Below, in pieces: positions 206 through 10,117 of a stretch of 10,117 nucleotides of DNA; the first letter of the stretch is position 1; every line of letters begins with the position of its first letter. The stretch lies in UHGV virus genome UHGV-1654939. The stretch is one strand, 5' to 3'. Under the pieces are notes generated by a model that was not told the origin of the DNA, made no database searches, and saw only the letters and a program-made list of their open reading frames with translations. The translations under genes and the position numbers were made by a program. Source of the stretch: a virus.

Positions 206-3886
<3,681 letters not shown>

Positions 3887-7080: not shown

Positions 7081-7434
7081 GTGGCTGATTTCGATAACCT
7101 GTTCGATGCTGCCATTGCTCGCGCTGATGAAACGATACGCGGGTACATGGGAACGTCAGCCACCATGACATCCGGTGAGCAGTCCGGTGCTGTGATACGT
7201 GGTGTTTTTGATGACCCTGAAAATATCAGCTATGCCGGACAGGGCGTGCGCGTTGAAGGCTCCAGCCCGTCCCTGTTTGTCCGGACTGATGATGTGCGGC
7301 AGCTGCGGCGTGGAGACACGCTGACCATCGGTGAGGAAAACTTCTGGATAGACCGGATTTCGCCGGATGATGGCGGAAGTTGTCATCTCTGGCTTGGACG
7401 GGGCGTACCGCCTGCCGTTAACCGTCGCCGCTGA
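7081..7434 (+). CDS. FII: Head completion / head-tail connector protein gpFII, 117 aa
   Basis: Track ORF 7081..7434. The start codon is GTG, preceded by GGGAGG. MADFDNLFDAAIARADETIRGYMG... and the 117-aa length are as in lambda FII. Confidence 0.92.
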   Translation: MADFDNLFDAAIARADETIRGYMGTSATMTSGEQSGAVIRGVFDDPENISYAGQGVRVEGSSPSLFVRTDDVRQLRRGDTLTIGEENFWIDRISPDDGGSCHLWLGRGVPPAVNRRR

Positions 7435-7445
7435 AAGGGGGATGT

Positions 7446-7808
7446 ATGGCCATAAAAGGTCTTGAGCAGGCCGTTGAAAACCTCAGCCGTATCAGCAGAA
7501 CGGCGGTGCCCGGTGCCGCCGCAATGGCCATTAACCGCGTTGCTTCATCCGCGATATCGCAGTCGGTGGTACAGGTTGCCCGTGAGACAAAGGTACGCCG
7601 GAAACTGGTAAAGGAAAGGGCCAGGCTGAAAAGGGCCACGGTCAAAAATCCGCAGGCCAGAATCAAGGTTAACCGGGGGGATTTGCCCGTAATAAAGCTG
7701 GGTAACGCGCGGGTTGTCCTGTCCCGACGCAGGCGTCGTAAAAAGGGGCAGCGTTCAGCCCTGAAAGGTGGCGGCAGTGTGCTTGTGGTGGGTAGAGTCG
7801 ACTCGTAA
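7446..7808 (+). pseudogene. Z: Truncated tail-completion gene Z: about 116 lambda-like codons, then 4 unrelated codons (RVDS) and a stop
   Basis: Track ORF 7446..7808 is 120 aa, against 192 aa for lambda gpZ as I recall it. The start is 11 nt after the FII stop, as in lambda. MAIKGLEQAVENLSRIS... is Z-like up to ...GGGSVLVVG (through nt 7793), after which the frame ends at TAA 7806-7808. Confidence 0.8.
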
Positions 7809-7833
7809 GGTTAGGGATTCAGATTATGCGAAC

Positions 7834-8916
7834 ATGCAAACGCTGATTAACAGCGACACAAAACGTATATACGTTCGCTTTGTTGTTAATGGAAACTGGA
7901 CAGCGTGGAGTCAGGTTGTTGTTTCCGGATGGAATCAGGATATAACTGTCAGGTCGTTAACCACATCTAGTCCGGTAAAATCTGGCGGAGGGCGAATTGA
8001 TGTCCTTGGAAGCACGTCAGACTATAGCAAAATGGATTGCTTTGTACGTGGGTTTGATAGCACCGGTAATTCTCTCGCGTGGGCGTTGGGTTCATCAGCC
8101 GGCGTAAGTAAGATGCTGTCGCTAAAAAATTTCTTTAGCGGAGCTGAGATACTGTTAAATGGTAATGACGGCGCGGTTCAACTCAAAACAGGTGCTGTTA
8201 ACGGGGCTACAGCGCAGGCGCTCACTATCAACAGGAATGAGGTTAACTCAACCGTTGATTTAACCCTTACAAAGCAATCAGGGACTGGTAATCGTTTTGT
8301 TTTACAGAACTCAGGTAATGCAGAACTACCGTTTTCTGTCAGGGTGTGGGGTTCCAGTACTCGACAAAACGTTTTTGAGGTTGGCACGTCTGCTGCGTAT
8401 CTGTTTTATGCGCAAAAAACGTCAGCAGGCCAGTTGTTTGATGTAAATGGCGCTATTAATTGCACAACGCTGAATCAGTCATCAGACCGCGACCTTAAAG
8501 ACGATATTCTCGTTATCAGCGACGCGACGAAAGCAATCCGTAAAATGAACGGATACACCTACACGCTCAGGGAAAACGGGATGCCTTATGCTGGCGTTAT
8601 TGCACAGGAAGTAATGGAGGCGATACCAGAAGCTGTGGGATCGTTTACTCATTACGGTGAAGAGTTGCAAGGCCCGACCGTTGACGGCAACGAGCTACGC
8701 GAAGAAACGCGCTATCTTAATGTTGACTACGCCGCCGTGACGGGTTTACTTGTTCAGGTCGCCCGTGAAACAGATGATCGCGTTACCGCGCTGGAAGAGG
8801 AAAACACAACGCTACGTCAAAATCTGGCAACAGCAGACACCCGGATCAGCACTCTGGAAAATCAGGTAAGCGAACTGGTTGCACTTGTCCGGCAGTTAAC
8901 AGGAAGCGAACATTGA
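7834..8916 (+). CDS. Tail fibre C-terminal fragment: distal receptor-binding region plus intramolecular chaperone (peptidase S74-like) domain. It lacks an N-terminal tail-attachment part and may be a pseudogene.
   Basis: Track ORF 7768..8916. The first 22 codons are Z sequence read in another frame, so I take the first in-frame ATG after the junction (7834). The motif SSDRDLKDDI begins at 8479, followed by GYTYTL and a C-terminal heptad-like segment (TALEEENTTLRQNLATADTRISTLENQVSELVALV). This is the characteristic layout of self-cleaving chaperone domains of phage fibres and tailspikes. There is no convincing ribosome-binding site. Confidence 0.6.
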   Translation: MQTLINSDTKRIYVRFVVNGNWTAWSQVVVSGWNQDITVRSLTTSSPVKSGGGRIDVLGSTSDYSKMDCFVRGFDSTGNSLAWALGSSAGVSKMLSLKNFFSGAEILLNGNDGAVQLKTGAVNGATAQALTINRNEVNSTVDLTLTKQSGTGNRFVLQNSGNAELPFSVRVWGSSTRQNVFEVGTSAAYLFYAQKTSAGQLFDVNGAINCTTLNQSSDRDLKDDILVISDATKAIRKMNGYTYTLRENGMPYAGVIAQEVMEAIPEAVGSFTHYGEELQGPTVDGNELREETRYLNVDYAAVTGLLVQVARETDDRVTALEEENTTLRQNLATADTRISTLENQVSELVALVRQLTGSEH

Positions 8917-9099
8917 TATCCTTCAAGCTCTGAAGGAGGCTGTTCCCGGTACGTTCAGACTGTTGTTGAGCTGGAAATCGCAACGGAGGAAGAGAAAGCG
9001 TTACTGGCCGCATGGAAAAAGTATCGGGTGTTGCTGAACCGTGTTGATACATCAACTGCACCGGATATTGAGTGGCCTGCTGTCCCTGTTATGGAGTAA
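8917..9099 (+). pseudogene. tfa: Tail fibre assembly protein (tfa-type) 3' remnant, with no start codon of its own
   Basis: Directly after the fibre TGA (8914-8916) and in the same frame, the translation runs ...[44 protein letters not shown] to TAA 9097-9099. I recognise this ending as the conserved C-terminus of lambda-type Tfa proteins. Exactly where the tfa homology begins is not determined. Confidence 0.5.
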
Positions 9100-9443
9100 T
9101 CGTTTTGTGATATGCCGCAGACACGTCGTATGCAGGAACGTGCTGCGGCTGGCTGGTGAACTTTCAATAGTGCGAGTATTGAATGATTTCCAGCTGTTAT
9201 CGATTTTATGTGTTTTTTGCATGAGGGGATTTCCACCACCTCCCACCGACCATCTAAGACTTTATGCCACTGTCCCTAGGACTGCTATGTACTAGGAGCG
9301 GATGTTAAACTCAGACTCGTTTCAGCTACATTGCGTTTTGAATAATATTTCATCATAATAACTCTTTGAAAAATGTGATCTTTTCATTTATAACACTGAT
9401 GACTTGCTTATCTCATTGGGATATCGGAGGAGAATACTTAACT

Positions 9444-9572
9444 ATGACAAGCCCGATTATTATGACACTGGCTATATTATATAGATTGATATTAAAATGT
9501 AGGATTAGGTTCTTGCCAAGGTGTCAAGATTTACAGATAGGTTTAAAACCATATAAATATGTTTTACGGTGA
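9444..9572 (+). CDS. Hypothetical small hydrophobic peptide, 42 aa (possible single-helix membrane peptide)
   Basis: ATG 9444 is preceded by GGAGGAG (9426-9432). The peptide MTSPIIMTLAILYRLILKCRIRFLPRCQDLQIGLKPYKYVLR has a hydrophobic N-half and a basic C-half. It is the 3' part of track ORF 9366..9572. No homology is known to me, and it could be chance in AT-rich DNA. Confidence 0.2.
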   Translation: MTSPIIMTLAILYRLILKCRIRFLPRCQDLQIGLKPYKYVLR

Positions 9573-9612
9573 GATACAATACATATTGTAAGGCATAAAC
9601 GCTTGGTAAAAT
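9531..9612 (+). promoter_or_regulatory. Candidate sigma70-type promoter elements upstream of the 9637 ORF
   Basis: TTACAG (9531-9536) lies 17 nt before TAAATA (9554-9559). TTGTAA (9586-9591) lies 15 nt before TAAAAT (9607-9612). These are hexamer matches by eye in AT-rich DNA, where such matches are frequent. Confidence 0.2.
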
Positions 9613-9636
9613 TTTAATTATTGGAAGAAGCTAATC

Positions 9637-10117
9637 ATGGAACCCATATCAATTACAGTGGCAACTTATGTAGCAACTAAACTTATTGATCAATTCATCT
9701 CTCAAGAAGGATATGGTTGTATTAAGAAAGCATTATTCCCCCAAAAAAGATACGTGGATAGATTATATCAACTAATTGAAGAGACGGCAATTGAGTTTGA
9801 AGAAACATATCCAGTAGAAAGTGGAGCAATACCATTTTATCATTCCGAACCATTGTTTGAGATGTTGAATGAGCACATCTTGTTTAAAGAGTTCCCTGAC
9901 AAAGAGATATTATTAGACAAGTTCAAAGAATATCCAAGTATCACTCCCCCAACTCAACAACAACTCAGCCTTTTTTATGAGATGTTATCATTAAAAATCA
10001 ATAATTGTTCGAAGTTAAAAAAGCTACATATCGAAGAAACGTATAAAGAAAAAATATTCGATATTAATGAAGAGCTCATTCAAGTTAAACTTATTTTACG
10101 GTCTATAGATGAGAAAC
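9637..10117 (+). CDS. Hypothetical protein, N-terminal 160 aa or more (continues beyond the window); unassigned
   Basis: I translated this by hand from ATG 9637 and found no stop codon through nt 10117: MEPISITVATYVATKLIDQFISQEGYGCIKKALFPQKRYVDRLYQLIEETAIEFEETYPVESGAIPFYHSEPLFEMLNEHILFKEFPDKEILLDKFKEYPSITPPTQQQLSLFYEMLSLKINNCSKLKKLHIEETYKEKIFDINEELIQVKLILRSIDEK. It is absent from the ORF track, presumably because it has no stop in the window. A weak Shine-Dalgarno-like GGAAGAAG sits at 9623-9630. Codon usage fits the local ~32% GC. Confidence 0.6.
   Translation, partial: MEPISITVATYVATKLIDQFISQEGYGCIKKALFPQKRYVDRLYQLIEETAIEFEETYPVESGAIPFYHSEPLFEMLNEHILFKEFPDKEILLDKFKEYPSITPPTQQQLSLFYEMLSLKINNCSKLKKLHIEETYKEKIFDINEELIQVKLILRSIDEK

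Follow-up and report, generated by a model that had tools for sequence, protein, structure and literature searches.

We identified positions 8953-9099 of a 10,117-nt stretch of the UHGV virus genome UHGV-1654939 (the whole of this stretch is called the window here) as the 3' end of a tail fibre assembly gene (tfa), placed behind a side tail fibre gene that ends in a folding domain of its own. With high confidence, we regard this segment as a non-functional tfa pseudogene, the right-hand scar of an old replacement of the fibre end by an S74 fibre cassette.

The initial annotation had described a frame that stays open for 60 codons after the fibre stop codon and ends like Tfa. The frame was found as described, with TGA at 8914-8916, 60 sense codons at 8917-9096 and TAA at 9097-9099, and its Tfa origin was confirmed for the last 48 codons, while the first 12 match no Tfa. 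Alignment to lambda tfa, which had been suggested as a check, revealed clear similarity to the Tfa C-terminus. The 48 codons and TAA (8953-9099, + strand) correspond to residues 147-194 of lambda Tfa, with 81% identity over residues 13-60 of the translated frame (BLASTP E=1e-26). These residues also matched the Pfam family Caudo_TAP (PF02413) with 76 bits against a cutoff of 22.1 (E=4e-21), over positions 86-130 of 131, so that the family profile is matched in its C-terminal part only. This similarity is far above chance. A tblastn search against the phage collection matched 333 records; the listed hits in annotated tfa genes all began at residue 13, and residues 1-12 were covered, among the listed hits, only by three phages that share the junction. 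At the DNA level, homology to intact tfa genes begins at 8954. The N-terminal 146 codons of lambda tfa are absent, and of a complete tfa gene (about 190 codons, a start codon and ribosome-binding site of its own, and coupling to the end of stf) 48 homologous codons are left. The first in-frame ATG, GTG or TTG of the remnant is a GTG at 9028, and a search for a ribosome-binding site found no usable one. The adjoining fibre ends in a Peptidase_S74 domain and is not of the kind that depends on a separate chaperone. RefSeq/PGAP labels the equivalent stretch "tail fiber assembly protein; incomplete; missing N-terminus". We class the remnant as a fragment of a Tfa family member and not as a functional one.

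A spacer of 36 nt (8917-8952, + strand) separates the fibre stop codon from the remnant and makes up the 12 codons in the tfa frame that have no Tfa counterpart. Within the phage records it was found only beside this S74 fibre end, and it is probably the 3' flank of the donor fibre gene. A diverged piece of tfa was considered as its source and rejected, as the listed hits of intact Tfa proteins do not align before residue 13. Comparison with the 3' flank of the mEp044 fibre gene showed no similarity. The spacer also holds a Shine-Dalgarno-like GAAGGAGG (8932-8939), which was rejected as the driver of a small ORF, there being no start codon 4-12 nt downstream.

The fibre gene fragment upstream (7795-8913, + strand, about 374 codons) was assigned by its match to the stf gene of AB66, which starts at codon ~885 of 1258, and to the Stf protein of mEp460, whose residues 878-1202 (the last 325) are 94% identical to the fibre ORF of the window. 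Its end (8482-8913, + strand) encodes a Peptidase_S74 intramolecular chaperone with a C-terminal coiled coil (Pfam PF13884, E=2.4e-12), the match covering ORF residues 239-290 with 47.4 bits against a cutoff of 22. The predicted autocleavage motif LNQSSDRDLKDDI is of the Ser-x4-Lys type and aligns to LNVSSDRRIKKDI of PDB 6f45, and SSDRDLK of the window fibre aligns with SSDRRIK of this S16 long-tail-fibre chain. The S74 domain, as in endosialidase and T5 pb1, drives trimer folding and is afterwards cut off; in the characterised homologues endoNF, T5 pb1 and S16 gp37, the chaperone domain is autocleaved and released. Because the present fibre ends in such an intramolecular chaperone, Tfa would not be required, and the fibre is predicted to fold without it. 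Phages rely on either an S74 domain or a separate Tfa (BASEL collection paper, 10.1101/2024.09.12.612763).

The fibre stop codon TGA (8914-8916, + strand) is followed by a T. We examined 59 copies of the junction, comprising 51 IMG/VR loci, fetched records and the window, and 58 of them carry TGA and the same spacer. The related fibre of mEp044 stops at the equivalent residue, with LTEGEK as its last residues, and TGA is therefore the natural end of the incoming fibre gene. The "SEH" common to the fibre end (GSEH before the stop) and to lambda Tfa (ASEHIAP) was tried as crossover microhomology and rejected, both on its wrong spacing and on the natural position of the fibre stop in mEp044.

That a fibre 3' end had been swapped in by recombination within tfa was already suggested by the initial annotation, together with a comparison of the junction with phages carrying an intact stf-tfa pair. 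Two such comparisons agreed with this proposal, both showing a cassette replacement with the same boundaries. mEp460 and its close relative mEp460_ev081, in which the stf-tfa pair is intact, show 95% identity across lom and up to ~850 nt into stf; they then share no sequence for ~2.7 kb (the distal cassette), and similarity returns at the counterpart of window position 8954. Between AB66 and lambda the left boundary is the same, no middle is shared, and similarity returns at tfa codon 147. Furthermore, the first 286 residues of mEp460 Stf (1202 aa) are 86% identical to lambda Stf. By these alignments, the cassette begins after ~280 codons of stf and ends at tfa codon 147.

In the course of events that we propose, the distal part of stf and the first ~146 codons of tfa would have been exchanged, in a lambdoid lineage, for a foreign fibre distal end, which would have brought along an S74 chaperone of its own, the stop codon native to it and ~36 nt of 3' flanking DNA. 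As this new fibre would fold without Tfa, the truncated tfa would have become dispensable, persisting as 3' untranslated DNA, and its being in frame with the fibre stop codon would be an accident of a single junction. The direction of the swap and the recombination mechanism are what we infer here, because the donor of the S74 end and the spacer was not found. A distant blastn search of the phage collection returned the last ~100 nt of the fibre gene plus the spacer only together with the remnant, a scan of IMG/VR (51 loci) found the remnant wherever the contig reaches far enough, and two scans of one-genome-per-species contigs gave no match. One IMG/VR locus with a different upstream sequence (L038) was considered as the ancestral context and turned out to be a secondary lom deletion. 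A search for a Chi site near the junction found none in the window.

The distribution of the junction was determined with a probe of 131 nt (8860-8990). It was present in 805 of 5,426 complete E. coli genomes, at 1,380 places that are all at least 94.7% identical, most copies being 97-100% identical over 8860-8990, and every match among those listed spans exactly 131 bases and is hence gapless. The junction also occurs in the phage isolates mEp460 (Stf of 1202 aa), Ayreon and PhiR70_1 (830 aa), which have full-length Stf; PhiR70_1 shares with the window only the S74 domain and the remnant, not the receptor-binding part. It was not found in two scans of representative genomes of other species. 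The scar is common and already annotated in E. coli prophages, and it is an ordinary mosaic-boundary pseudogene.

Variation among the 59 copies was concentrated in the remnant. For the tfa part, mean pairwise diversity was 10.5%, compared with 2.1% for the final 147 nt of the fibre gene and 2.8% for the spacer, which makes the remnant ~5 times as diverse as its flanks, and at least 12 distinct Tfa C-terminal ends were joined to the one junction. Because of this excess of diversity and these different 3' ends, the remnant is a stretch that has repeatedly exchanged sequence with other tfa alleles through homologous recombination, situated between a variable tip and a variable cargo. Variants in the middle of the block combine freely with both spacer haplotypes, and the points at which homology to the window stops on the right are grouped at 9051-9080 and 9148-9164. 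One copy is frameshifted in an A-run, and in one copy the spacer has been fused, at a microhomology of ATATC, to the N-terminal part of lom by a secondary deletion. The core of the remnant, highly conserved and common to the intact tfa genes of other prophages, would keep recombining with them, and this exchange would attach varied 3' ends and varied downstream cargo, here Avs2, to the same junction.

Nearly all complete copies have retained an open frame to the native tfa stop codon. This could be read as purifying selection, and it is equally expected from low divergence in situ combined with repeated import from tfa alleles that are intact and under selection. Of the singleton substitutions found in the remnant, 5 were non-synonymous and 2 synonymous, a comparison of low power that fits the absence of selection and is not decisive. 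Recombination inside the remnant is apparent from the copies themselves, and selection for keeping it would be a separate matter. Conceivably, the remnant is kept as a right-hand homology arm that works with the conserved stf N-terminus in the exchange of fibre-tip cassettes and of the cargo slot, an idea to which we give a rather low probability. Equally tentative is the corollary that such exchange takes place between self-chaperoned S74 tips and Tfa-dependent tips. If this were true, changes of host range and of defence cargo would come more easily to lineages in which the remnant is retained.

The pseudogene and the fibre end lie in a prophage that has itself decayed. This prophage is lambdoid, and the window represents its left arm, with ORFs that match lambda in size and order (Pfam). 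Terminase gpA (180-2105) is followed, in lambda order and by Pfam family matches, by gpW, a lambda-family portal protein and an S49 prohead protease, then by head decoration protein D, major capsid protein E and FI, and by the head-tail attachment protein FII (7081-7434). A 5' fragment of the tail gene Z (7446-7794, + strand) matches positions 1-115 of 190 of Pfam Minor_tail_Z (E=5.8e-41); in the Z-derived ORF 7446-7808, the alignment with lambda Z stops at ~7794 and the sequence then continues out of frame to a stop codon at 7806-7808. Alignment with lambda Z, AB66 stf and strain ES2 located the joint of a Z'-stf' deletion at ~7792-7795. The C-terminus of Z, all tail genes, lom and stf codons 1 to ~884 (the 5' 70%) are gone from the window. 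The same joint is found in strain ES2, which has the Z'-stf'-tfa' arrangement of the window, placed at the DLP12 site; the order in AB66 is J-lom-stf (1258 aa)-tfa'-avs2. The listed 382-aa fibre ORF (7768-8916) is a 5'-truncated, promoterless pseudogene fragment, because its GTG and 9 codons come from Z-derived DNA. A complete fibre gene with an N-terminal tail-attachment domain is present in mEp460, Ayreon, PhiR70_1 and AB66, and the window holds only codons ~885-1258. Since the Z-to-stf deletion removed the tail genes and ~884 stf codons, neither the fibre fragment nor the tfa remnant of the window can contribute to a virion. The prophage of the window has thus decayed further by a deletion from Z into stf.

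Several functional roles for the sequence behind the fibre stop codon were weighed against a pseudogene. The initial annotation had mentioned, as an idea without evidence, that stop-codon read-through would add a Tfa-like tail. A functional fusion of this kind, in which read-through of TGA 8914-8916 would extend the fibre or its chaperone by 60 residues, was not supported by the analysis, and we consider it very improbable. The 60-codon frame is open in 55 of the 56 copies that are readable to a stop after the fibre TGA, and a small hairpin lies 2 nt past the stop codon. However, all copies come from one junction and are 97-100% identical around the stop codon, so that the conservation of the frame is inherited, and the in-frame relation amounts to a one-in-three chance of that single junction. 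The hairpin is at chance level and outside the minimum-energy fold, and all variation in the 12 linker codons is non-synonymous (S/P, R/W). Rfam contained no match to SECIS or read-through RNA families at E<=1, the fold z-score was -0.12 and the hairpin count was within two standard deviations, which is not what programmed UGA recoding would require. TGA followed by T is reportedly a strong termination context in E. coli, and TGA-T is the context found here. Furthermore, the tail would sit on the S74 domain and, by analogy with the characterised homologues in which this domain is autocleaved, would not reach the virion, and the fibre gene of the window has neither a 5' end nor a promoter. Translation of the remnant alone, as a mini-Tfa that aids fibre assembly or binds the cell surface, is extremely unlikely. 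It would agree with the open frame and with the part of Tfa that was kept, which is the most conserved one, but 146 of 194 residues are absent, no in-frame start codon has a ribosome-binding site, and the GTG at 9028 would leave 23 residues. The adjoining fibre has its own chaperone as well, one copy is frameshifted, and the singletons (5 non-synonymous against 2 synonymous) point the same way.

The inverted repeat reported by the initial annotation at 8920-8936 is real and 1 bp longer, forming a 7-bp stem TCCTTCA/TGAAGGA (8919-8925 and 8931-8937, + strand) with a 5-nt loop, but it does not exceed chance. It had been placed at the junction; it does lie 2 nt past the stop codon, but inside the spacer, and the tfa breakpoint is 16 nt further on. 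It is very improbable that this hairpin (8919-8937) is a functional element, whether a terminator, an RNA stabiliser or a recombination site behind the junction, although a perfect 7-bp stem stands directly after the stop codon and is kept in all copies. Its conservation is uninformative, because the whole junction of ~130 nt is nearly identical (at least 94.7%) in all copies, and there is no evidence of covariation because the sole polymorphism among relatives is in the loop. On its own the hairpin folds at -7.5 to -8.3 kcal/mol, but the minimum-energy fold of 8900-8960 omits it in favour of other pairing (z-score -0.12). The window contains 7 perfect 7-bp hairpins with loops of 3-8 nt, within two standard deviations of the 3.8 +/- 2.3 found in dinucleotide shuffles. 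No U-tract follows the stem, the next sequence being GGCTGTTCCCGG, as an intrinsic terminator would have, and a scan of 8700-9700 found no terminator-like sites. Its position in the spacer, 16 nt before the tfa breakpoint at 8953/8954, also speaks against such a function. Fold z-score, shuffle counts and terminator scan together ruled out the hairpin as a signal. It overlaps the Shine-Dalgarno-like GAAGGAGG at 8932-8939.

A small RNA was the remaining candidate. The Rfam model IS009 (RF02111) matches 8856-9056 over its full length with 81.5 bits (E~1e-18), and IS009 hits are known from prophage regions of pathogenic E. coli (bioRxiv 10.64898/2026.05.13.724894). Published mentions describe IS009 as an Rfam hit associated with prophages; in one study it was left out of the ncRNA analysis, among the RNAs expected to carry ribosome footprints. 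The score in the window is below the gathering threshold of 117, however, and only the 3' half of the model, which is tfa coding sequence, aligns well. Within the intact tfa of lambda this model reaches 217.7 bits, and within tfaD of K-12 it reaches 227.8 bits; because of these high scores within coding genes, IS009 is in effect a model of the tfa coding sequence. A scan of the + strand at 8700-9700 found no promoter-like or terminator-like sites. The hit in the window, judged by these alignments, re-detects the tfa remnant, and there is very little chance that the region encodes IS009 or a regulatory RNA derived from the 3' untranslated region.

The conserved sequence that follows tfa (9100-9310, + strand) resembles the b region of lambda, with 89% identity to lambda 24161-24346. 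It contains stem-loops at 9114-9149 and 9151-9195 with a T-rich tail (fold z-score -2.08). In lambda, a diverged second copy lies directly after tfa, so that two copies flank ea47. A gapless repeat finder found no direct repeats flanking lambda ea47, and alignment near this gene showed a diverged, duplicated hairpin element. The DNA of the window is AT-rich from ~9310. The 5' part of an avs2 gene (AVAST type 2, anti-phage defence) occupies 9637-10117 (+ strand), according to the RefSeq annotation of 97%-identical DNA and a PADLOC Avs2 match (E=7e-6), and this gene is cargo downstream of the fibre module.

As a discovery, the pseudogene is minor, yet it neatly illustrates how the tail fibres of lambdoid phages are mosaics: a tip with its own chaperone would have displaced a Tfa-dependent one, leaving a datable scar beside a slot that carries defence genes. 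For annotation, such remnants should be treated as pseudogenes and not as fibre extensions, and IS009 hits in prophages as tfa coding sequence and not as a sign of an sRNA. For the engineering of chimeric lambda side fibres, the two conserved boundaries offer natural splice points, at stf codon ~280 and at tfa codon 147.

Among the closest counterparts of the remnant are the partial tfa pseudogenes that PGAP annotates behind S74 fibres in E. coli prophages, which have the same junction, essentially base for base. mEp460, Ayreon and PhiR70_1 carry the same tfa stretch, left unannotated. Compared with the other copies, the fibre gene of the window is additionally cut by the Z-stf deletion, and its 3' end type, AVPVME, together with the Avs2 cargo is one of many combinations. 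With respect to lambda tfa (orf-194) and its lambdoid homologues, 8953-9099 equals codons 147-194, at 81% identity in protein and ~88% in DNA, and the same post-tfa sequence, TCGTTTTGTGATATGCCGCAG..., follows both. Unlike lambda tfa, the remnant has no start codon, no translational coupling to stf and none of the first 146 codons, and it stands behind a fibre predicted to have no need of Tfa. The resemblance to IS009, whose model aligns to 8856-9056, reflects shared coding ancestry and not a shared RNA. In the DLP12 prophage of K-12, tfaD and tfaX are also tfa-derived survivors in a decayed lambdoid prophage, beside packaging-gene debris; however, tfaD is a near full-length tfa (187 codons) with no S74 fibre end upstream. 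The fibres and spikes of K1F (endosialidase), T5 (pb1) and S16 (gp37) share with the window fibre a C-terminal Peptidase_S74 chaperone with the Ser-x4-Lys motif, whereas here the S74 domain is grafted on a lambda-type Stf N-terminus, with the scar of the displaced Tfa adjoining.

On its left side the fibre region borders on a deletion joint (window positions 7792-7795), at which the truncated tail gene Z (Z', 7446-7808, covering Pfam positions 1-115 of 190) runs into the side tail fibre gene (stf) from about its codon 885 onward. The deletion took out every tail gene, lom and the first 70% of stf, counted from the 5' end. E. coli ES2 has the same joint, located at its DLP12 site.

At the other end of the fibre gene, the spacer between the fibre stop codon and the tfa remnant contains a strong Shine-Dalgarno-like sequence, GAAGGAGG (8932-8939), which also lies within the hairpin; no ATG, GTG or TTG was found 4-12 nt downstream of it. 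Single copies of this junction carried secondary changes. In the IMG/VR locus IMGVR_UViG_2908572912_000001 (minus strand, ~3739), a secondary deletion removed the entire fibre gene and placed codon ~55 of lom (GINVKY) in frame with the spacer and the tfa remnant, the fusion point being an ATATC microhomology. Only one of the 59 copies examined had a frameshifted remnant, namely IMGVR_UViG_2718218453_000005, in which a 1-nt deletion in an AAAAAG run changed WKKY to WKSIGCC*.

The Rfam model IS009 (RF02111) matched the window at 8856-9056, below the family gathering score. Two intact tfa genes exceeded the Rfam threshold for the same model, lambda tfa (2817-3015 in the lambda stretch L004) and K-12 tfaD (7857-8055 in the K-12 stretch L063), and the K-12 tfaX region (L063 8899-9102) fell just under it with 110 bits. 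The IS009 'sRNA' family thus appears to be a model of the tfa coding sequence, and prophage matches to it should be interpreted accordingly.

Directly adjoining the remnant is a post-tfa stem-loop element (9100-9310; fold z = -2.08), composed of GCCGCAG...CTGCGGC, then another hairpin and finally a T-rich tail. Lambda carries two copies of this element, one on each side of ea47 (L004 3059-3130 and 4662-4849, corresponding to lambda ~22558-22629 and ~24161-24348), whereas the window remnant abuts the distal copy, as if ea47 had been inserted or deleted between the repeats. The cargo slot 3' of the remnant holds the 5' part of the anti-phage gene avs2 (AVAST type 2; 9637-10117), and the gene order in intact relatives is J-lom-stf-tfa'-avs2-int. 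Upstream of avs2 the DNA is AT-rich, and its minus strand holds two sigma-70-like promoter matches (9 of 12) that overlap each other (9342-9379), a count not above that in shuffled sequences.

Alternative fibre cassettes were found in two near-identical phages, mEp460 and mEp460_ev081. The former has the self-chaperoned S74 tip followed by DinI and integrase, while the latter has the distal part of stf with an intact tfa, followed by a serine recombinase. The two phages are a natural before-and-after pair for the fibre cassette swap.
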